DNA from: an uncultured Bacilli bacterium | Lineage (GTDB): Bacteria > Bacillota_I > Bacilli_A > RF39 > UBA660 | Reading direction: 5' to 3' | NCBI GenBank assembly: GCA_947625505.1 | Contig: CANQON010000004.1 | Span: 23,498 to 87,497 of the forward strand | Length of the DNA: 64,000 bases | In this document: positions 28,520 to 54,518 of the stretch, piece by piece | Layout of the letters: each line of letters starts with the position of its first letter | How positions within the stretch are numbered: position 1 is the first letter of the stretch | Notes under the pieces: generated by a model | Databases searched by the model: none | What the model was told of the DNA's origin: nothing | The model's input: the letters and a program-made list of their open reading frames with translations, nothing else | Position numbers and translations under genes: made by a program

Positions 28520-29412
28520 AATAATTCCTCTTTTCTAAATAACTCTATACTATTTTTATATAATATTTTATCTATTTGTTCATTATTAAATTCTTGACTT
28601 AATGCTTGTCTTAAATAACTTGTTATTTCTTCATAAGGTAATAACGCTACCGACTTATATATTGGACTAATAATTTCCATATTATCTGAAGCTATCATAA
28701 CATTATCAATACCTAATACTTTAATTGCATATTTAATATGTTCTATATATTCATCAATATCTTTAGCAAAGTAGTTAACAAGAACTAATCCTAATTTACC
28801 ATTAACTTCCTTTAATAAAGATAGTTCTTCATCATCTAGATTACGGGAGTGATCAAAGATTGTTCGAATATTTGAATGACTGGCATATACTAAAGGATAT
28901 TTTTCTTCTTTAATAAGTTTTAAAATATCCATACACGTACTTTTATTAGCGTGTGATACATCAATATATAAATGTAAGCGCACAGCTTCTTTTATAAATA
29001 ATATTCCTTCATTCGTTAACCCATAAGTATCACGATTACCTGATCCATAACGGTTAGGATTATTCCATACTAGTATTATAGAAGTTAATCCCAATTCTTT
29101 TAAAGATACTAAATCATTAACACTAACATAGTCACATCCTTCAATACTATATTTAAAGTTTATATCTGGCATATATTTATTTAACGTATCTTTAGCAAGT
29201 TTAAACATCTCTATAACCGAGACATTATCTTGATAGTATTTATCTCCTAATTCTTCTTGCATTTCTTCACGTGTCATAAAATATAAATTAGCTGTAACAT
29301 AATTTATATTACCTTTTTTTAATATTTGATAAATACTTTTTAAATCTTCATAGTTGTTATTCGTATAAGATCTATAAGCTATAGATAATAGATCATTATG
29401 CATATCAAACAT
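28516..29412 (-). CDS. membrane dipeptidase (peptidase M19) family protein
   Basis: DMHNDLL, IEGCDYV, LVWNNPNRYGSG, IDVSHAN, YASHSNIR and SRNLDDEEL follow the M19 metal-ligand pattern. Overlaps the serS start. Confidence 0.75.
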   Translation of the reverse strand: MFDMHNDLLSIAYRSYTNNNYEDLKSIYQILKKGNINYVTANLYFMTREEMQEELGDKYYQDNVSVIEMFKLAKDTLNKYMPDINFKYSIEGCDYVSVNDLVSLKELGLTSIILVWNNPNRYGSGNRDTYGLTNEGILFIKEAVRLHLYIDVSHANKSTCMDILKLIKEEKYPLVYASHSNIRTIFDHSRNLDDEELSLLKEVNGKLGLVLVNYFAKDIDEYIEHIKYAIKVLGIDNVMIASDNMEIISPIYKSVALLPYEEITSYLRQALSQEFNNEQIDKILYKNSIELFRKEELL

Positions 29413-29422
29413 ATTATCTCTC

Positions 29423-29595
29423 CTAACAAAAAAGACTATAATTAGGAGCGCAATAGCGCGGTACCATCCTACTATAGTCTTAATTAATATAACGAGTTTC
29501 CCCGGAAATGTTTACATTTCTCTCCAAAGTAGATTCATAAAGTTATTATTATTCATTTCCACCAACCATGAACTCTCTATTAATAATTTCTTTAT
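29423..29595 (-). promoter_or_regulatory. T-box riboswitch leader, serine specifier (UCU)
   Basis: Minus strand shows AGAGAG/GGTTGGTGGAAA stem I elements, specifier loop GAA-UCU-A (codon at 29533-29531), T-box AGTAGGATGGTACCGCG, and the terminator GACTATAGTAGGA..GCGC-TATT-GCGCTCCTAATTATAGTC followed by TTTTTT. Confidence 0.85.
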
Positions 29596-29637
29596 TACTA
29601 TTCTTTATCATCGATTTCTATATGTATTTTAACTTAT

Positions 29638-45489: not shown

Positions 45490-46689
45490 TTATTCATATT
45501 TTTTCTTTAAAATTACTAATCCCATTAACATAGTAATCATTGTTCCAAAGATAATGTAATAGCTAATAATATTATCACTAGTTTCTGGAATAGTTATTTC
45601 TGGTTCAGGTTTTACGATAGCACCTAAAGTATATGGATTAATACTTGTTCCCTCACCCATAACAGCTAAATTACCATTTATGACAATTACAGGTCTTACA
45701 TATTCATATAGACTATGAAAGTATGACCAGCCTTCAGCGCAATCACCTATTGGCATACTAATATGATAATTGTTAATGTAGAAAGATAAGTCTCCATATA
45801 AGAAATCACCAGAAACAACATTATTCTCTATTGCTTCTTCCCCATATCCTGACATGGTTGGATATGTACCTCTAAAACTTAAATAGCTCTTTACCTGGTT
45901 GCCATAATTTTCTACTTCTTCACGATTAGAATAATCATCATTTAGTTTATGATTCTCTAAGTTATCTTGTATTCCTGCATAAATAGCTTCATCAATAGTT
46001 AATTCACCAACAGGATATTTTAATAAACCATTACCTAGTTCTTTGCTAACAGTAAATGAATTTTCCTTATTAGGACATGTTAGTGTTGGTTTTCCTTCTA
46101 TATATCGAAAATAAGCATTAGTATATTTTTCGTTACTAGTAGATCTTACAATATCATTACAATATATTTCATCATAAATTGACTCTGTATAATCTACTAA
46201 TTTATTTTCATACCATGATTCAATCATTTGTTTTTCATCGCTATCAGCATAAGTATTTGATACTCCATTACTAGTATAATCCTTATCATACTTTAATTCT
46301 TCATCATACTCTAAAACACCTGTACAAGTACCATCAGAATTTGGTTTACCACCATATATTAGTTTAACTCCTCCGTTGTCCGTTGTTCTTACGATTTGCC
46401 AACATAAATTAGCATATTTAAGCCAATTATTATCAATATTACCACGATAATAATGAATTGGGTAAGTATCTTTTAAAGTTGAAGCAATTGTATATACTCC
46501 CTTTCCATTTGTATCTGATGAAGTATATTTAAAATTAATACCATTATCATACGTGACAAATTCACTCTTTATATTATCAGCAGTTGCTTGTGATGCAATC
46601 TTATTATATAAAGACTCTTCTTTAGCATATACGGGATAACTTGTTAGAGAAAATATTAATGTTAAAATCAATAATATTATTTTTTTCAT
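45490..46689 (-). CDS. secreted surface protein with a C-terminal sorting-like signal
   Basis: Signal peptide MKKIILLILTLIFSLTSYPVYA (start 46689, GAGGTG RBS). C-terminus is IPETSDN, then a hydrophobic helix, then KKKYE. Confidence 0.6.
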   Translation of the reverse strand: MKKIILLILTLIFSLTSYPVYAKEESLYNKIASQATADNIKSEFVTYDNGINFKYTSSDTNGKGVYTIASTLKDTYPIHYYRGNIDNNWLKYANLCWQIVRTTDNGGVKLIYGGKPNSDGTCTGVLEYDEELKYDKDYTSNGVSNTYADSDEKQMIESWYENKLVDYTESIYDEIYCNDIVRSTSNEKYTNAYFRYIEGKPTLTCPNKENSFTVSKELGNGLLKYPVGELTIDEAIYAGIQDNLENHKLNDDYSNREEVENYGNQVKSYLSFRGTYPTMSGYGEEAIENNVVSGDFLYGDLSFYINNYHISMPIGDCAEGWSYFHSLYEYVRPVIVINGNLAVMGEGTSINPYTLGAIVKPEPEITIPETSDNIISYYIIFGTMITMLMGLVILKKKYE

Positions 46690-46723
46690 TATTTGTTCAC
46701 CTCTATTATAATAAGTATAATCC

Positions 46724-46740
46724 AAAAAAAAAAAAAAAAA
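46724..46740. repeat. A17/T17 homopolymer tract
   Basis: 17 consecutive A on the plus strand, 35-50 nt upstream of the surface-protein start. Part of the conserved element 46724-46766. Confidence 0.9.
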
Positions 46741-46773
46741 CAAGTAACTTTTTTGAAAGATATACTAATATAT

Positions 46774-46805
46774 AAAAAACTATACTAATATATCTTTTAG
46801 TATAG
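46774..46805 (-). terminator. rho-independent terminator of pncC
   Basis: CTATACTAA-N8-TTAGTATAG perfect 9-bp stem followed by T6 on the minus strand. Overlaps the stop. Confidence 0.7.
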
Positions 46806-47247
46806 TTTCTACTTCTTTAATAATTATTTTCTTACATTTATCTCTTTCTAGATTAGGTAATATAATCTTATTAGTATGATAAGTATTTAAATCATTATCA
46901 TAAATACTAATATAAACAACATTATCTTCACCATTTAAATTATTAGGATCTTGTCTATTTATTTTACCTGTTATCCCTACTCCATAACTAGAACTCGCAT
47001 ATTTCGCAATATTATAACTCATTTCTTTTGCTACTTCTTCACTATATACTGTATAAGTATCAATAGTCTCTTTATTAACACCCATTTTTATTTTATATTC
47101 ATTAGAATATGTAACAGCACTAAATCTTAATACTTCACTAGCACCTGGAATATTAGTTATAGCGTTCGCTACTCCTCCACCAGTACATGATTCCATCGTC
47201 GCTATCGTCTTATTATTAGCTTGTAAAAGTTTAACTATTTGTTTCAT
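46780..47247 (-). CDS. pncC: nicotinamide-nucleotide amidohydrolase (CinA C-terminal domain, PncC)
   Basis: ATMESCTGGGVANAITNIPGAS signature. 155 aa. Confidence 0.8.
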   Translation of the reverse strand: MKQIVKLLQANNKTIATMESCTGGGVANAITNIPGASEVLRFSAVTYSNEYKIKMGVNKETIDTYTVYSEEVAKEMSYNIAKYASSSYGVGITGKINRQDPNNLNGEDNVVYISIYDNDLNTYHTNKIILPNLERDKCKKIIIKEVETILKDILV

Positions 47248-48106
47248 ATTTTATTTTTTTCTCCTTATCTTTCGTTTTTATCATATTATAAAACTGATCA
47301 ATAACATTTAATTGTTCACTATTTAAGTATTTTTTAGCTTCTTCAATTAATTCTTTAGGTACACCATAATAAGCTTCTAATATTGAACAAGTGATAGCTG
47401 CGATAGTATCACTATCTCCTCCTATTGAAATACTTTTACGGAGTCCATCTTCAAAACTATCAGCTACTAAGAAACAATATATAGCCTGAGGAACAGAATC
47501 TATAGCAGCACTTTTAAAAGTATAATTATGTCTTAAATCATCTAAATTAAATTCCAAACGATAATGATAACGAAATGATAAATAAGTCATAATTTGTTCT
47601 TTAGAAAAACCATGACGCGCTAAATAGATAGCTGAAGCAACAGTGCAAGCTGCATCTACACATTCATTATTATTATGTGTTGGTAAAGTAGATAAACGTG
47701 CTTCTTGTTCTACTTTTAGTAGTTCATCAAAAGCATAACCAATAGGTCCTACTCTCATCGCACATCCATTACCTATACTATGTCCATATTTATCTTGTTT
47801 TAACCATTCACAAAAGTTATAACTAAATCTACTTCGTCCATACTTATCAATACCAAGATTTACTTCCTCTTGTCCATAAGTTCTTAAATATTTTTCATAG
47901 TCTTTATCATGCATAATAGCGTCACCAATCGCTAATGTTAAAACAGTATCATCGGTATAAGATGAATCACTAGTAAATAATGGTGTCTTATTATCCATAA
48001 TAAGCATTCTCTCTTCATAAGAACGTTTATTATGTTCTTTTTTAGCTTTTACTTCTAATACTTCATATATTGATCCTACAATATCACCAATTATGGCTCC
48101 CCACAT
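47231..48106 (-). CDS. ADP-ribosylglycohydrolase family protein
   Basis: N-terminal WGAIIGDIVGSIYE, YTDDT and GGDSDTIAAI motifs. Start at the ATG at 48106, behind an AGGTGA RBS. Confidence 0.8.
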   Translation of the reverse strand: MWGAIIGDIVGSIYEVLEVKAKKEHNKRSYEERMLIMDNKTPLFTSDSSYTDDTVLTLAIGDAIMHDKDYEKYLRTYGQEEVNLGIDKYGRSRFSYNFCEWLKQDKYGHSIGNGCAMRVGPIGYAFDELLKVEQEARLSTLPTHNNNECVDAACTVASAIYLARHGFSKEQIMTYLSFRYHYRLEFNLDDLRHNYTFKSAAIDSVPQAIYCFLVADSFEDGLRKSISIGGDSDTIAAITCSILEAYYGVPKELIEEAKKYLNSEQLNVIDQFYNMIKTKDKEKKIKYETNS

Positions 48107-48136
48107 ATATATCACCTAATTAATTATTATAACAAA

Positions 48137-48727
48137 TTAATTATCTTTCTCATATAATTTATTCAATTTAATATATTTTAAAACATTCTTATCCATAACA
48201 TCATCCACATTAAGATTATTTTTTAATTTATCTCTAATTATCGTCGATGATAAATTATAAAGAGGAATACTTGTAATAATAATATTATCTTTATATTCTT
48301 GATACTTTTTTAATAGTTCTTTAATATTGTCTCCTTTTCTTTTAATGACTAATATTTTATAGTTATTTAAAATATCCATACCATTTTTCCATTTATCAAT
48401 GTAACTTAAATTATCTGTTCCACATATAAAATATATTTCATCATTGGGATATAATAATTTAAAATGTTCTAACGTCTCACAAGTATAAACCACATAATCT
48501 TTTAATTCAAAATTACTTACTTCCATATTAGGATTATTTTTAATCATTAACTTTATCATATCCAAACGATAATTATCTTTTAATAAATTATTTTTATATT
48601 GATATTCACTACCTGTAGGAACAAAGATTATCTTATCTACATAATCTTTATTAATTAATTCTTTAGCTATTTTTAAATGCATTTTATGAGGAGGATTAAA
48701 ACTACCTCCAAAGATACCTATACGCAT
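48137..48727 (-). CDS. nadD: nicotinate-nucleotide adenylyltransferase
   Basis: GIFGGSFNPPHKMH and ISSTIIR motifs. Confidence 0.9.
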   Translation of the reverse strand: MRIGIFGGSFNPPHKMHLKIAKELINKDYVDKIIFVPTGSEYQYKNNLLKDNYRLDMIKLMIKNNPNMEVSNFELKDYVVYTCETLEHFKLLYPNDEIYFICGTDNLSYIDKWKNGMDILNNYKILVIKRKGDNIKELLKKYQEYKDNIIITSIPLYNLSSTIIRDKLKNNLNVDDVMDKNVLKYIKLNKLYEKDN

Positions 48728-48743
48728 AATATTACTCCTTATA

Positions 48744-48783
48744 TTGTTATTAACATTATATTAAAAACATTATATATTGTCAA
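48744..48783 (-). promoter_or_regulatory. NAD promoter-operator cassette, copy 2
   Basis: Identical 27-mer at 48744-48770. TTGACA (48783-48778)-N17-TATAAT (48760-48755), palindrome 48755-48745, then an AAGGAG RBS. Confidence 0.75.
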
Positions 48784-48805
48784 GATATAAAAAAGAAAAA
48801 ACACT

Positions 48806-49894
48806 TTAGTGTTTCTTCTTACGACTTTTCTCTATTTTCTTAAGCATTTCTTTTTTGCCATTTTCTAAAACATGAATAGATTCTTGATTATGAAGAGTAT
48901 TTATTATACGCGCAATAAATTTAGAACAGTCTACTTCATGGAACCATTCACATTTTTTAATTTCTTCAGGTACATAAGATAGATTAGTTGAATATATCAT
49001 CGTAAATAATCCTTCTTCATATGCTTCTTGGAATTTTTCTGTTCCTTCAGTAAATAACGAAAAAGTAGCAATTGGAAAAATCTTTTTAGCTCCCCTTTTC
49101 TTTAGTTCTTGAGCTACATCTAGAATAGATCCTCCAGACGCTATCATATCATCAACGATTAAGATATCTTTATCTTTAACATCGCTTCCCATATAGATAT
49201 GATCAACAATCGGATTTTTGCCATTAACGACTTTACTTAGATCACGTCTTTTATAGAAGACACCGACATCACAACCTAACATTTCAGCATAATATCTAGA
49301 TCTTTCCATAGCTCCCATATCAGGACTTACAACTAATAAATTATCGATATCTTCTTTCTTAATTAAATCTTCAAGAATAATATGTGTCGGGTAAAAATTT
49401 TCAAATGGTAGATTAGGTATTGAGTTATTAACATTAACATCATGAGCATCAAAAGTTACAATATCATCTACTCCTAGATTCTGTAATTCCTGTAAAGCTA
49501 TCGCACAGTCTAAAGATTCTCTTCCTTTTCTTTTATGTTGTCTTGATTGATATAAAAGTGGCATAACAAGTGTTATTTTAGCACTATGCCCACTTGTTGC
49601 GCTAACGATACGTTTAACATCTTGGAAATGTTCATCAGGAGACATATAATGTGGCATACCATGCATCATATAATTAATACTATAATTACCTACATCACAT
49701 AAGATATATAAATCTTGACCTCTTACTGTATCATTAATCGTAACTTTGCCTTCACCATTAGAAAAACGAACATTAGATATATTAATTAAATAATCTTCTT
49801 TTTCTTTACGAATTTTTTGTAATTCTTTATTAACTTTTTCCCCTACTTCTTTAAAGTTTTCTAAAACAATTAATTTCATATTATTCTTCTTCAT
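48806..49894 (-). CDS. prs: ribose-phosphate pyrophosphokinase (long form)
   Basis: FSNGEGKV, RQHKRKGRES and the ILIVDDMIASGGSI PRPP loop. Start at the ATG at 49894, behind a GGAGG RBS. TTGACT-N17-TATATT promoter upstream, with no NAD palindrome. Confidence 0.85.
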   Translation of the reverse strand: MKKNNMKLIVLENFKEVGEKVNKELQKIRKEKEDYLINISNVRFSNGEGKVTINDTVRGQDLYILCDVGNYSINYMMHGMPHYMSPDEHFQDVKRIVSATSGHSAKITLVMPLLYQSRQHKRKGRESLDCAIALQELQNLGVDDIVTFDAHDVNVNNSIPNLPFENFYPTHIILEDLIKKEDIDNLLVVSPDMGAMERSRYYAEMLGCDVGVFYKRRDLSKVVNGKNPIVDHIYMGSDVKDKDILIVDDMIASGGSILDVAQELKKRGAKKIFPIATFSLFTEGTEKFQEAYEEGLFTMIYSTNLSYVPEEIKKCEWFHEVDCSKFIARIINTLHNQESIHVLENGKKEMLKKIEKSRKKKH

Positions 49895-50001
49895 ACTACC
49901 TCCATATACCCTATTAACTATTTTCAACTACAATATAGTAAAATTAAATATTAAAGTCAATACTTTTTAGATAAAAAGAAAAAATAACTTTTCAGTTATT
50001 T

Positions 50002-50649
50002 TTACTCAGTAATCCATAGACAATATAAGTTTTCAAAAATAGCAATATCTTCTGGTGTAAAAGTATTAACTATAGCTTCTGAAATACTTCCTCTAATAGC
50101 CATATCTTTACTATATAAACTAGTTTCAGAAACATAACTAGTCGTAAATGGTTGAAAATCTACTTTAACACAATCTTTTAATTTTTTATTAGCAGCTAAA
50201 GCGATAGCGTTTGCTTTACTTAAAGCATCCTCATAAGCAAGCTCTAAAACCTCTTTACGGCATTCTTTTTCGTCTTTAACGCCAAAGTCTACTTGACATA
50301 TTGGAGGATTATCTAATTTCGATATTTCGACCATCATACGAGCCATTTTCTCACGATCATAATCAAATTTAAGAGTAGCATCTTGATTAAAAGAAAAGCC
50401 ATCAGGATAATATTGACGTGATACTTCATCATATCTTTTTTCCTCACGAATAACAAAATTACGTGTTTTTAAATCTTCTTTAGCAAAACCTTCTTTTAAA
50501 AGTAAATTATTAACGAAATCTTGGACATGTGTTACACCTTCACTTAAAACTTCTTCATAAGTTTGTCCTTTGTATTGAAATGTTATTCGCATCTTTACTT
50601 CATCAGGCTTAACATATTTAACACCACTACCTTGTACATTTATTTCCAT
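50002..50649 (-). CDS. SIMPL (DUF541) domain protein
   Basis: INVQGSGVKYVKPDEVKMRITF start and overall pattern of SIMPL / 26-kDa periplasmic immunogenic proteins. No signal peptide seen. Confidence 0.65.
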   Translation of the reverse strand: MEINVQGSGVKYVKPDEVKMRITFQYKGQTYEEVLSEGVTHVQDFVNNLLLKEGFAKEDLKTRNFVIREEKRYDEVSRQYYPDGFSFNQDATLKFDYDREKMARMMVEISKLDNPPICQVDFGVKDEKECRKEVLELAYEDALSKANAIALAANKKLKDCVKVDFQPFTTSYVSETSLYSKDMAIRGSISEAIVNTFTPEDIAIFENLYCLWITE

Positions 50650-50698
50650 TCTATCATCTCCTATTTAATTATAACATTTAAATAAAAGAAAGAAAACG

Positions 50699-53600
50699 TT
50701 ATGCCGTCTTCTTTCTTAATTTACGAAATACGAAGATTGAAATAACTAGTCCAACAAGACATGTTACAAAAAGCATGATATATTTTATAGAATTATCTAA
50801 AGTTAATGGACTTTTTATAACTTCATTAGTAATAGTTACTGTAATATCATTGTTAACTACACCTTTATTATTTTCATATGTTGTATTATAACCATTCTTA
50901 TTAGCGTCTATTTCAATTATTTCATATTGGGTATTATATGGTAAATTAATAGTTATTTTTTGATTATTTTTTAAAGTAATATTACCTATATAAGTATCAT
51001 TTTCATCTTTTGTAAACTTGATTATTCCATCTTCAATATTAGTACCTTTATAAGCTATATTTTCTTCTAAAGGTACATCAGGATTTTCAACTAAACGAAT
51101 TTCAAAACTAAATTCTTGATCTGTTTTAGTTTCTCCTTTAACTATTTTTTCAATAGTTAAATCATAATAAGAATACTTTTTATTATAGAATTCAATAGTT
51201 GGATTTTCACCTGTTAAAGTACCTTCTAAATTACCTTTAGTTGTTGTTTTATAATCATCTTGATTTGCTTCTACTTCTTCTAATTTATATTGAACACCAT
51301 TAGGTAAATCTTTTATTGTTATAGTTTCTTTATCTTTAATTTTAATTGTTCCTTCATATTTATTTTCACTATTAGTTAAAGATAAAATACCTTTTGTTCC
51401 ATCTTCATTAATAGTTTGATAAGATGTATTTAATGTTTGATTACTTGGCGCAACTAAAGTTACTTTAATAGTCCATTCTTTATCAGTTTCACCTAAGTCA
51501 CCACTTACAAACTTCTTAATAATTAAATCATTTTGTAATACTTGTAATTTACCATTATTACCTTGATACATATTTATAACAATATTATTACCATCATTAA
51601 ATCCTGTTGTTGATTCACTAATAGAAGGTAATATATAAGATGAAGAGGTCTTAGTATTATTAGTTTCTTTAGTAACTAGTTCATCTTGCATATTACCAGC
51701 AATTAAACCACCTGGTTTAGTAGCTATAACCCAATCCGTATGTGTATCTTCTGGTTTAGTTGTACTAAAGTTTTTCCAAATATTAGCTGATGGACTATAC
51801 CAACATAGATATTCGCCAAAGCTAATATTTTGTCCACTAATACCTGTTCCAAACTCTTTTCCTTGTCTTAAAAGCGCTACATGACATATTTCTTCTTCAT
51901 TAGGCATATAATAATCTATTACAATGTAATAATATTTATTAGAATTTTCATTATCAACCTTATTTACCGTTTTATGATTTTTAATAAATGTTTTATAACT
52001 AGCATCATCAAGAATTATTTCCTTCTCTTGCTTATCTTCCGCAGTTGCTTCATATAGTATCAATGGTGTATTAGATGTAAAGTATTGATTGTCTGAACTT
52101 GGTGAGAATGATATAGTAGCATCACCATGTGTACTATTATTTATTTGTTTATTTGAAAAATAATTAGCATAGAATGAAATATATTTTTTAGAGTCAACTT
52201 CTTCGGTATTTTGAGCAATATATTCTTTAGAAACTTTAGATAAATTAATTGACCCATCAGCATTTTTTATAGCGCTATCTATTCCAACCGTATAATAAAC
52301 GCGTAATGGCGTTGCTTCCTCATATTTATCTAAGTTATCACTATAAGATATAACTTTATTATTTTCATCAATTTGTATTTCAGCAACTTCTAAAGGCAAA
52401 GCATTTCTTGGAATATTAATATATAATGTTTCATCATATGTATCATAACTACTAGTCTTTGAGTTACTATCTTCTTTACTTTCAACATACATTAAAATAC
52501 TACTTAAATTAAATGTAACATTATAGTTAGTATTACCATTTACATCTTCCATTTTATATGAAAGATTATTTTGAACATCACCATCTTGTGAAACAATTTT
52601 ATAATATTGTCTTGTATAATTATATTTTTCAGGTTTAACATCATATTCAGTAACACTGTTATCAGCATTAACAACACAATATTTTAATTTATCTTTAACA
52701 ACATTGTAGAACTTACCAAATAGGGAAACATTTTTAATTTCTTTAACTTCCATGTATTTGCCAATTGGATCTATATATGTTAAATAATCTTTAATACCTA
52801 TATCATTAACACCTGAAATTGGTTTTAAAACTTGTTCAGTTATTGTAATAAGCATATTCTTAAATACATTTGTTAATTGATCAGTATCTGTTTCCATATA
52901 TTGGTCAATATAATATACATCTTCAACTGATGTTACATCGTATTTGGCAGCATCACCTGTTGGATGATTAAATGTCCAATTAGCTTTTATTTGTTTATCT
53001 GCCCACTTATAATTACCAAATGAAAAAGTTGGAGTATTTCCTTTTAAATATTCTTCAAATGCATTGTAAGACGTTTTTAAATATTCATTATCAACATCGG
53101 CTGTAAAATATTTACGTGGATCCATTGTTGCCCTTAATTGAAACTGTGAATATTCAGATTGCGTATATACATTTAAACCAATTCCAAAGCCATACATAGA
53201 TACATCTGAACCATCAATACTATTTTTAGTATAATTATCTTCTACCCAATTTTTCATATAGCCTGCTGTTAACAAAACACTTAAAGTTCTAGGAGGCATG
53301 GTATAAACTGTTTCTTCATCTAAATGAAAATAAATTGGATTACCATTAGCTTCAGCTATATAATTTTTATAAGTATTTCCTTTTTGTTCAACAGGTAATA
53401 TAGCTTTACCATCACTACTATCTGTCCAACTTAGTGGATTCCAGAAATCAATACGTGATTTTTCATCATATTTAGCTGTACTTGTAGCACCAACAACGTT
53501 AGTTCCACCATCTGTTAAAGTAATTAAAATTGGTGTACGATTCATAGTTATATTAGTTACTGGATTGGTATATGTAGTATTTTTTTCTGTAGCAAGTAAA

Positions 53601-54376
53601 TACATTCCTTGATATAAAGCTCCTTGTAAATATGTTGAATCAGCAAACATTGGATCACTTGTTTTATTTTTTATTTTATCAGTTTCTTTAACATGAGTTG
53701 TTACTTTTGGCCATAATTTATCTCGCCCACTTACTCTATCAAGGGTTAAATAATCTTCTTGACCTTCTTCTAATTCATAATGACTTAATGGCAATAATAC
53801 TTGAGTTCCACCAGCATATACGATAATTCCTACACGGTTATTGGGATGAACATACTCAATATCATCATTATCTCCCATTAAGGTTTTAATTAAAAAGTTA
53901 GCTGATTTAATTGCTTCCGCATCAGCATAATGATCTGACATAGAGGTAGAAACATCAATTAATAAAACAACATCTAGAGGAACACTTTCTAGTCTAGATA
54001 CTCTTTTACTACTACCTAAAGCAGAATAAACATGTAAGAAATCGCTATCGTTTGTAATGGTACCAGATACACCATCTGTTTCTCTATCTAAAGTTAAAGT
54101 TGATGATGAAAGAACAGTCTTATCTGACCAAATCTTACCAGCATTTTTAGATCCTGTCTTATCATTGATAAGATAGTCTTTATAACTATCCATCGTATTA
54201 TTATCTACAATATAACTTATGTTATTATTACCTAATTCACCTGCTACATAATCGCCACTTAACTTTTTATTACTCTTACTTATATTAGCATGTTTAATAG
54301 CTAGTGGCGTTATTAATGAGCAAATGACAAGTGATAAACTAATAACTAAGGCAAGTAATTTATATTTTATCTTCAT
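50699..54376 (-). CDS. large surface adhesin-like protein: signal peptide, vWA domain, C-terminal Cna-B/SpaA-like repeats, sorting-like signal
   Basis: MKIKYKLLALVISLSLVICSL signal (start 54376). MIDAS DVVLLIDVSTSMSD. Two repeats (KKFVSGDLGETDKEWTIKVTL...YKLEEVEA..DYKTT and EKIVKGETKTDQEFSFEIRL...YEIIEIDA..GYNTT). Tail is SPLTLDN, then a TM helix, then RKLRKKTA. Confidence 0.8.
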   Translation of the reverse strand: MKIKYKLLALVISLSLVICSLITPLAIKHANISKSNKKLSGDYVAGELGNNNISYIVDNNTMDSYKDYLINDKTGSKNAGKIWSDKTVLSSSTLTLDRETDGVSGTITNDSDFLHVYSALGSSKRVSRLESVPLDVVLLIDVSTSMSDHYADAEAIKSANFLIKTLMGDNDDIEYVHPNNRVGIIVYAGGTQVLLPLSHYELEEGQEDYLTLDRVSGRDKLWPKVTTHVKETDKIKNKTSDPMFADSTYLQGALYQGMYLLATEKNTTYTNPVTNITMNRTPILITLTDGGTNVVGATSTAKYDEKSRIDFWNPLSWTDSSDGKAILPVEQKGNTYKNYIAEANGNPIYFHLDEETVYTMPPRTLSVLLTAGYMKNWVEDNYTKNSIDGSDVSMYGFGIGLNVYTQSEYSQFQLRATMDPRKYFTADVDNEYLKTSYNAFEEYLKGNTPTFSFGNYKWADKQIKANWTFNHPTGDAAKYDVTSVEDVYYIDQYMETDTDQLTNVFKNMLITITEQVLKPISGVNDIGIKDYLTYIDPIGKYMEVKEIKNVSLFGKFYNVVKDKLKYCVVNADNSVTEYDVKPEKYNYTRQYYKIVSQDGDVQNNLSYKMEDVNGNTNYNVTFNLSSILMYVESKEDSNSKTSSYDTYDETLYINIPRNALPLEVAEIQIDENNKVISYSDNLDKYEEATPLRVYYTVGIDSAIKNADGSINLSKVSKEYIAQNTEEVDSKKYISFYANYFSNKQINNSTHGDATISFSPSSDNQYFTSNTPLILYEATAEDKQEKEIILDDASYKTFIKNHKTVNKVDNENSNKYYYIVIDYYMPNEEEICHVALLRQGKEFGTGISGQNISFGEYLCWYSPSANIWKNFSTTKPEDTHTDWVIATKPGGLIAGNMQDELVTKETNNTKTSSSYILPSISESTTGFNDGNNIVINMYQGNNGKLQVLQNDLIIKKFVSGDLGETDKEWTIKVTLVAPSNQTLNTSYQTINEDGTKGILSLTNSENKYEGTIKIKDKETITIKDLPNGVQYKLEEVEANQDDYKTTTKGNLEGTLTGENPTIEFYNKKYSYYDLTIEKIVKGETKTDQEFSFEIRLVENPDVPLEENIAYKGTNIEDGIIKFTKDENDTYIGNITLKNNQKITINLPYNTQYEIIEIDANKNGYNTTYENNKGVVNNDITVTITNEVIKSPLTLDNSIKYIMLFVTCLVGLVISIFVFRKLRKKTA

Positions 54377-54407
54377 ATTCAAAATTCCTTTCACATAATG
54401 AGTATAA

Positions 54408-54518
54408 ATGTCTAAATTATGTCCCATAACAAATTTCTTTAACTATTAATGATAGAAGTAATAATAATTATTAAAGAAATATAGTGTATCTTTAGTGAAT
54501 AGAACACAATTTAGACAT
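54408..54518. repeat. nested inverted repeats in the adhesin 5' leader
   Basis: Outer 11-bp inverted repeat ATGTCTAAATT (54408-54418) / AATTTAGACAT (54508-54518). Inner 10-bp inverted repeat ATTTCTTTAA (54433-54442) / TTAAAGAAAT (54471-54480). A further 8-bp hairpin at 54528-54555. Confidence 0.8.

Follow-up and report, generated by a model that had tools for sequence, protein, structure and literature searches.

In a 64,000-nucleotide stretch of the genome of an uncultured Bacilli bacterium (assembly GCA_947625505.1, contig CANQON010000004.1; C4:23498-87497 in the contig numbering used here), hereafter the window, two exported proteins of 1225 and 399 amino acids carry the same type of C-terminal tail, in which the motif x-P-x-T-x-D precedes a hydrophobic helix and a few basic residues. 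We consider it quite probable that these tails are class B sorting signals that attach both proteins to the wall of the cell, and that the enzyme processing them is most likely a 272-residue class B sortase (SrtB) encoded on another contig, C21. The motif, which can be written x-P-x-T↓x-D with the arrow at the predicted cut, is most likely the pattern of class B sortases and a lineage-specific variant of a known system as opposed to a new pathway. The tail recurs in the genome, the genus and the family, it co-occurs with the sortase clade that includes the C21 enzyme, and in related genomes genes of this clade directly adjoin genes for proteins with such tails.

Tails of two unrelated exported proteins

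The longest open reading frame (ORF) of the 1225-residue protein spans positions 50699-54427, with a likely start (MKIKYKLL...) at 54376; the encoded protein contains a VWA domain, two DUF7601 and two DUF5979 domains (Pfam) and ends in ...KSPLTLDNSIKY-IMLFVTCLVGLVISIFVF-RKLRKKTA, with the stop codon at 50699-50701. For the 399-residue protein, the ORF covers 45490-46743, the likely start is at 46689 and the C-terminus reads ...TIPETSDNIISY-YIIFGTMITMLMGLVIL-KKKYE, followed by a stop at 45490-45492 (Table 1). Both have a signal-peptide-like N-terminus (MKIKYKLLALVISLSLVICSLITPLAIKHANI and MKKIILLILTLIFSLTSYPVYA; assessed by eye) in addition to the C-terminal motif, a helix of about 17-20 residues and the basic tail, which together make up the layout of a sortase substrate. 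When the two proteins were compared with BLASTP, the alignment was confined to the tails. The first-pass annotation of this DNA had described two tails of sortase-substrate layout on otherwise unrelated proteins, which translation and alignment bear out, and its proposal that the shared P, T, D, N, I and Y reflect recognition by a processing system holds as well.

Numbered from the predicted cut (T↓L), SPLTLDNSIKY has S at P4, P at P3, L at P2, T at P1, D at P2', N at P3', S at P4', I at P5' and Y at P7'; in IPETSDNIISY, with the cut predicted at T↓S, I occupies P4, P is at P3, E at P2, T at P1, D at P2', N at P3', I at P4' and Y at P7'. Thus, both tails have the Pro at P3 and the Thr or Ser at P1 of class B signals (SPLT and IPET), and both have Asp at P2' (T-L-D and T-S-D). 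Peptides with which SrtB enzymes have been tested include DNPKTGDE for Bacillus anthracis, TNPKSSDS for Listeria monocytogenes and PVPPKTGDS for Clostridioides difficile, and the Asp at P2' is required by B. anthracis SrtB (PMC11987632). The Leu at P4 and the Gly at P1' of LPXTG signals, read by class A enzymes, are lacking in the window proteins, where S or I stands at P4 and L or S at P1'. Because x-P-x-T↓x-D is the class B pattern, the two proteins are most likely wall-anchored by this route, and the initial view that the motif lies outside the known sortase signals has to be abandoned.

Comparison of the 399-residue protein with its relatives indicates that the sorting tail is modular. The body of the protein closes with the family block ...VRPVIVI...GEGTSINPY, and the sorting signal is added after this block; of 120 relatives listed, most of which have the block in the form ...VRP...GDGT..NPY, 103 stop there without an anchor and 11 have an xPxTxD tail. 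The family is large and consists of hypothetical exported proteins of uncultured Bacilli, some with DUF6273, and its members usually end in ...VRP(V/S)(V/I)SL....G.G(T/S)..NPY.

Recurrence of the tail in the genome

The assembly consists of 1.66 Mb in 59 contigs, with a G+C content of 28%. The proteome-wide motif search suggested in the first-pass annotation, performed on all ORFs of the genome by looking for P-x-T followed by a helix and basic residues at the C-terminus, turned up 7-8 further proteins with the same tail (Table 1), and nine proteins of the genome have tails of the form [IVLS]-P-x-T-x-D-[NDSQ]. The partial ORF on C32, in which NPETLDAVATS is followed by a helix and KKLFN, has Ala-rich surroundings that set it apart from the other contigs and may represent contamination, the assembly being rated 4% contaminated. 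Four canonical signals were found in the same genome (LPETGG, LPSTGG, LPQTGQ and VPDTGV), none of them with Asp at P2' and each beside its own sortase. With Asp-bearing tails and Asp-free canonical signals present in one genome, two signal classes coexist.

Sortases of the genome

An inventory of sortase and exosortase genes, likewise proposed at the outset, yielded six genes with the sortase domain PF04203, all on contigs other than that of the window, as expected from the earlier remark that the window encodes no sortase; the exosortase domain PF09721 was not detected in the genome. Typing with NCBIfam models assigned one sortase to class C and two to class B, the remaining three being small and unclassified. 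The two SrtB enzymes score 185.5 and 161.4 bits with TIGR03064 (cut-off 153.75), the higher score being that of the C21 enzyme, which also matched the PDB entries 1rz2, 1ng5 and 4ux7, with E-values from 3e-38 to 7.5e-34.

Five of the six sortases adjoin their own substrates (Table 1). The C21 SrtB has no neighbouring substrate and is therefore likely to be a housekeeping enzyme. Its gene directly follows mraZ, rsmH and a PBP2B-type gene (C21:12359-17302), in a shortened division and cell-wall cluster that runs into the sortase. This gene order was found in only two of the 80 related loci described below, both from close relatives, and we accordingly dropped it as a general argument for a housekeeping role. 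Apart from PBP2B, the genome encodes three proteins that end in the FtsW/RodA-like sequence ...PFLSYGGSS....

The surroundings of two other sortases can be described briefly. At C19:19248-22596, and likewise at loci L043 and L044, a thioester-domain (TED)/SpaA protein ending in SPIPVTAD(M/Q/T)N is followed by a long SrtB of 443-492 residues with an N-terminal cytoplasmic extension of about 220 residues, forming a conserved pair. In the region C9:16000-28000, a small sortase accompanies a 700-residue TED/SpaA protein that ends in ...LASNTGSYNTD, a helix and KRKQ; the surroundings, with an ssb-like gene and large ATPase-like ORFs, resemble a conjugative element.

Co-occurrence of the tail with a clade of class B sortases

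A tail profile (A1) was built from seven tails of this genome, one of them that of the 1225-residue protein, whose own match at E = 6e-20 is thus a match to a tail used in building the profile. Searched against related genomes, A1 matched the tails of large exported proteins; most species of the genus and 50 of the 121 genera of the family have such proteins (non-self E-values down to 2e-12), and other families of the class gave next to no matches. The translated tails of relatives include VPNTLDDISKY, NPQTFDNIMLY, IPRTLDNIIKY, NPKTLDNVSLY and NPETLDGITSY. Class B sortases are distributed over the whole family; 16 further families of the order and class were sampled, and these enzymes turned up in a single one of them.

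The correlation across relatives envisaged in the first-pass annotation was found at both taxonomic levels, in tests that ignore shared ancestry. An ortholog of the C21 SrtB, defined by at least 50% identity, is present in 16 of 20 genomes of the genus (50-72% identity, 270-317 residues), and the tail (A1 at E < 1e-3) was detected in 15 of these 16 compared to none of the four genomes without the ortholog (Fisher p = 0.001). At the level of the family, where each of the 121 genera was represented by one genome and membership in the C21 clade was defined by a second profile (A2 at E <= 1e-90), the tail was found in 39 of the 54 genomes that have a C21-clade SrtB compared to 11 of the 67 that do not (odds ratio 13, p = 4e-10). 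Several of the exceptions in the family have sister short SrtBs located beside NPNTSDN, NPQTGDS or NPETGDN proteins.

These distributions bear on the alternative that the tails are read by another sortase of this genome, either the long SrtB of C19 or one of the small sortases of C1, C3 and C9. Six sortases are available, and the protein beside the C19 enzyme (IPVTADMN) also has T-x-D. However, each of the five other sortases has its own adjacent substrate, and the neighbours of the small sortases are of the xPxTG type without Asp at P2'. Moreover, among the four genomes of the genus that lack a C21 ortholog, two (G008 and G016) have only the long SrtB and no dispersed tails, the other two having no SrtB (G010) or a divergent pair (G013). 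The C9-type small sortase, used as a control, does not co-vary with the signal: it is present in the signal-less genomes G008, G010 and G016 and missing from the signal-bearing genomes G002, G003 and G024. We therefore regard processing by another sortase as unlikely, and favor the C21 SrtB. The dedicated processing enzyme postulated in the first-pass annotation accordingly has one likely candidate, encoded elsewhere in the genome; the part of the proposal that does not stand is that of a new type of enzyme, the candidate being a class B sortase of ordinary fold.

Adjacency of class B sortase genes and tails in relatives

In related genomes, the genes of short SrtBs directly adjoin genes whose products end in ESNPQTFDNIMLY, EENPNTLDNIQLY, KNPQTYDGIKLY, ETNPQTSDNILLY, ETNPQTFDGVINY and PTPDTYDGILLY. 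The motifs beside enzymes of the C21 clade are NPQTFDN, NPQTYDG, NPQTSDN, NPNTLDN, NPQTFDG and TPDTYDG, and VPNTYDG is also among the endings encoded directly beside such enzymes; further members of the clade are located in pilus clusters with APNTYDN or VPNTLDN proteins. In a maximum-likelihood tree, the C21 SrtB falls into a clade with these substrate-adjoining enzymes (support 99/94), and the SrtBs whose neighbours lack the Asp (NPKTGVTG and NPLTSSM) fall outside it. When public species genomes were searched with the profile of this clade, 80 loci were retrieved; their source organisms are uncultured Bacilli from the gut of rabbits, humans, sheep, goats and chickens, with record names such as 'uncultured Tenericutes', 'Mollicutes bacterium', 'Mycoplasma sp. 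CAG:776' and 'Candidatus Faecimonas gallistercoris'. All genuine sorting signals encoded no more than 4 kb from the SrtB genes conform to xPxTxD; they number about 35, spread over about 24 loci, and no LPxTG signal without Asp was found over the same distance. Taken together, the model score, the co-occurrence and the gene adjacency in relatives point to the C21 enzyme as the cognate class B sortase that a class B signal calls for.

Some loci of the relatives are of separate interest. In the pilus clusters of two genomes, a small protein ending in APNTYDNIMKY or VPNTLDNIYLY is encoded together with LPxTG pilins, a class C sortase and a short SrtB; in these pilus-like clusters, L038 (G103:C28:2000-6900) and L040 (G088:C3:5500-10000), the gene of the xPNT[YL]DN protein lies between those of two LPxTG pilins and the class C sortase and the short SrtB follow. 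In these clusters, it may be the short SrtB that attaches the basal pilin. Locus L046 (G014:C14:10000-20000) contains four tandem genes for proteins of about 1000 residues with tails VETVDEITKY or VETLDDISKY, in which Glu stands in place of Pro without change to T-x-D or the Tyr; in two other relatives the tails read VNTLDN, Val having replaced the Pro.

These organisms belong to the RF39 order. The one paper on RF39 and sortases found in the literature that we searched, a survey, predicts peptidoglycan in most RF39 species; with regard to sortases, it gives only the presence or absence of srtA/B, with no loss in this group (PMC10868615).

Residue pattern of the tails

For a closer view of the signal, 62 tails were collected by profile and anchored on T-x-D, so that the complete conservation of T and D among them is partly circular, and the Asp at P2' in 62 of 62 is not an independent count. 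Independent support for the Asp comes from the neighbourhood scan of the C21-type loci, where the neighbours found by a looser pattern all have it. The residue at P3 is Pro in 60 of the 62 tails. Among the other positions, P4 is mostly occupied by N (34), V (12), I (9) or S (4), P1' by L (20), S (13), G (11), Y (7) or F (4), P3' by N (27), G (12) or S (8), P4' by I (38) or V (10), and P7' by Y (45), F (5) or W (2). The bulky residues at P1' (L, Y, F), the Ile at P4' and the Tyr or Phe at P7' appear to be lineage-specific features, those at P4' and P7' only provisionally.

The conservation of N, I and Y noted in the first-pass annotation is genuine; these residues are located at the membrane interface, where the Ile at P4' and the Tyr or Phe at P7' could have a structural role. 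The tail might accordingly be a membrane anchor that is never cleaved, with the conserved residues serving insertion or contact with another envelope component, and a sortase of lowered activity, as the Arg-to-Lys change described below might imply, would fit this possibility. Nevertheless, the invariant P-x-T-x-D core matches the experimentally defined sortase B pattern, and co-occurrence with, and adjacency to, one sortase clade across many genera would not be expected of a passive anchor. For these reasons, an uncleaved anchor seems improbable to us, and sorting by a class B enzyme remains the preferred explanation.

Lysine at the catalytic arginine position

In an alignment of the C21 SrtB with B. 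anthracis SrtB (1rz2), H140, C233, L106, Y191 and S231 of the latter are conserved, the His and Cys of the triad being H157 and C252 (in SLSTC) in the C21 enzyme. The position of the catalytic R243 is taken by K258 (...DSEKIVLHAKL vs ...AGRLVVHAKL; posterior ~0.9), and the C21 enzyme thus departs from the His-Cys-Arg triad. Of 77 enzymes of the clade, about 51 share the Lys, the other 26 or so having Arg at this position, and the two kinds are interleaved among close relatives; enzymes with Lys also adjoin xPxTxD substrates, and the long SrtB has Arg.

To our knowledge, the catalytic Arg is present in all characterised sortases. Its change to Lys strongly impairs SrtA of Staphylococcus aureus. 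Neither a natural Arg-to-Lys sortase nor an R197K mutant was found in the literature that we searched. If the enzymes with Lys are fully active, they would constitute a natural exception to the accepted view that sortases require the catalytic Arg. We tentatively raise the possibility that the short SrtB clade is a distinct housekeeping subclass of class B sortases, often with His-Cys-Lys, that accepts a bulky P1' and reads an extended signal, x-P-x-T↓x-D-[NGS]-[IV]-x-x-[YF], reaching into the start of the helix; were this the case, the clade could supply ligation enzymes of new specificity. The Lys is, in our opinion, the most interesting loose end of this analysis, an oddity of relevance to sortase enzymology and to protein-ligation tools.

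Evidence against the assignment

Several observations weigh against the assignment of the tails to class B and to the C21 enzyme. First, class B signals typically have Asn at P4, and the window proteins have S and I there. Second, the C21 enzyme has no adjoining substrate in this genome, so that its pairing with the tails rests on the relatives and on co-occurrence. Third, the partner of the long SrtB on C19 likewise has T-x-D, and the motif core alone therefore cannot tell which SrtB paralogue acts. Fourth, 15 of the 54 genomes with a clade SrtB lack the signal at the chosen threshold, and both co-occurrence tests ignore shared ancestry. Fifth, the Lys at the catalytic Arg position could mean a lower or altered activity of the C21 enzyme.

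Finally, the curated models hardly detect the tails. TIGR01167 (LPXTG_anchor) and PF00746 gave no match on the 1225-residue protein. The tail of the 399-residue protein alone reaches 16.8 bits with TIGR01167 (cut-off 15.9), the whole protein falls below the threshold with 12.4 bits, and the score with PF00746 is 14.6 bits (cut-off 20). Scans of the tails with the NCBIfam and Pfam collections returned marginal matches to LPXTG_anchor and EF0750_LPXTG only and no dedicated model. The failure of the 1225-residue tail to fit any curated signal model, together with the rhomboid-family genes of this genome, would leave room for a new non-sortase enzyme, of exosortase, rhombosortase or other protease type, as the reader of the tail. 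However, rhomboid-family genes were also found in all 14 control genomes, which renders their presence uninformative, and the genome has no exosortase domain. The tails contain neither the PEP nor the GG motif of PEP-CTERM and GlyGly-CTERM proteins and there is no PF09721 match; a rhombosortase-specific model was not applied. Because the link to sortase B is specific and repeated, no further enzyme is needed, and we consider a non-sortase reader very improbable.

Model and implications

These findings translate into a simple model of class B sorting in this bacterium. Under this model, both window proteins would be exported by the Sec pathway and held in the membrane by the C-terminal helix and the basic tail. 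A membrane-anchored class B sortase would then cut x-P-x-T↓x-D between the Thr at P1 and the following Leu or Ser, and the carboxyl group of the Thr would be joined to peptidoglycan, probably, by analogy with other class B enzymes, to the side chain of m-DAP (meso-diaminopimelic acid). The enzyme would most likely be the 272-residue SrtB of C21, acting in a housekeeping capacity on about nine dispersed surface proteins.

As an annotation rule for uncultured gut Bacilli, including those recorded as 'Tenericutes', 'Mollicutes' or 'Bacilli bacterium', a C-terminal x-P-x-T-x-D followed by a helix and a basic tail probably marks a protein as wall-anchored by a class B sortase. The rule exposes a set of surface adhesins, among them many proteins of 2000-2500 residues, that the current LPXTG models mostly miss, and it extends the recently shown requirement of sortase B for Asp at P2' to hundreds of natural substrates.

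Features of the window and of the genome

Table 1. Features discussed in the text. Plain coordinates are positions in the window; C numbers denote contigs of the assembly.
Feature	Location	Strand	Basis or remark
Gene of the 1225-aa exported adhesin-like protein	50699..54376	-	ORF, Pfam domains, signal-peptide-like N-terminus
Sorting motif SPLTLDNSIKY, 1225-aa protein	50780..50812	-	translation
Helix IMLFVTCLVGLVISIFVF (50726-50779) and basic tail RKLRKKTA (50702-50725), 1225-aa protein	50702..50779	-	
Gene of the 399-aa exported protein, DUF6273-like family	45490..46689	-	ORF, homologues
Sorting motif IPETSDNIISY, 399-aa protein	45559..45591	-	translation
Helix YIIFGTMITMLMGLVIL (45508-45558) and basic tail KKKYE (45493-45507), 399-aa protein	45493..45558	-	
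Short SrtB, 272 aa	C21:12359-13180	-	TIGR03064; no substrate adjacent
Long SrtB, 484 aa	C19:21118-22596		after TED/SpaA protein ending IPVTADMN
Class C sortase and one small sortase	C3		LPxTG pilus cluster
Small sortase	C1		after VPDTGV protein
Small sortase	C9		after TED/SpaA protein, conjugation-like neighbours
Tail IPNTLDDIIKY	C3		1988 aa
Tail IPETNDSIMKF	C8		2498 aa
Tail LPNTGDNIMKY	C8		753 aa
Tail IPDTLDNVIKY	C13		2523 aa
Tail VPNTLDNATTY	C22		1385 aa
Tail VPSTLDQISKY	C51		1365 aa
Tail NPETLDAVATS	C32		fragment

Elsewhere in the window, a T-box leader (RF00230, 106 bits) is located at 29441-29620 on the minus strand, upstream of a gene that ends at 29412.

Comparison with known systems

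The system described here is not a new sorting pathway and represents a modest variant of a known one. The tails resemble those of IsdC of B. anthracis (DNPKTGDE), Lmo2186 of Listeria (NPKSSDS) and IsdC of S. aureus (NPQTN) in the succession of motif, helix and basic tail, and share with the class B signals of these bacteria the Pro at P3, the Thr or Ser at P1 and the Asp at P2' that B. anthracis SrtB needs; the cognate enzyme is likewise recognized by TIGR03064, and Asn occupies P4 in 34 of the 62 tails of the relatives. In contrast to those signals, which have G, N or S at P1', the present tails often have a bulky residue at this position (L 20, Y 7 and F 4 of 62), and they show additional conservation of N, G or S at P3', I or V at P4' and Y or F at P7'. 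In B. anthracis SrtB, the Asn at P4 is bound by Y191 and S231, whereas the window proteins have S and I at P4. Furthermore, the substrates here are many, dispersed and unrelated to haem uptake, and the gene of the enzyme is not beside them.

A parallel outside class B is the LPQTxE signal of Lactobacillus plantarum, a variant of LPXTG that has lost the Gly at P1', has a conserved acidic residue at P2' and Leu at P4, and is read by a class A sortase. The loss of the Gly and the acidic P2' are shared with the tails described here, but the Leu at P4 and the class A reader are not, and we dropped a class A variant of this kind as an explanation given that all the enzymes linked to the tails belong to class B. 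The designation LPQTxE is used in PMC3619620.

Housekeeping sorting in C. difficile is the task of a class B enzyme, SrtB, whose substrates are diverse surface proteins with (S/P)PxTG signals; the next two residues after the motif enhance cleavage (PMC4155245). The two systems are alike in that a general anchoring enzyme serves varied adhesin-like proteins encoded elsewhere and in that P4 is not Asn, and the peptide of C. difficile CD0386, PPKTGDS, has Asp at P2' as do the tails analyzed here (PMC11987632). The differences are that C. difficile keeps the Gly at P1' and has a single sortase, whereas this genome encodes six sortases and two classes of signal, and that the C21 enzyme has Lys at the position of the catalytic Arg.

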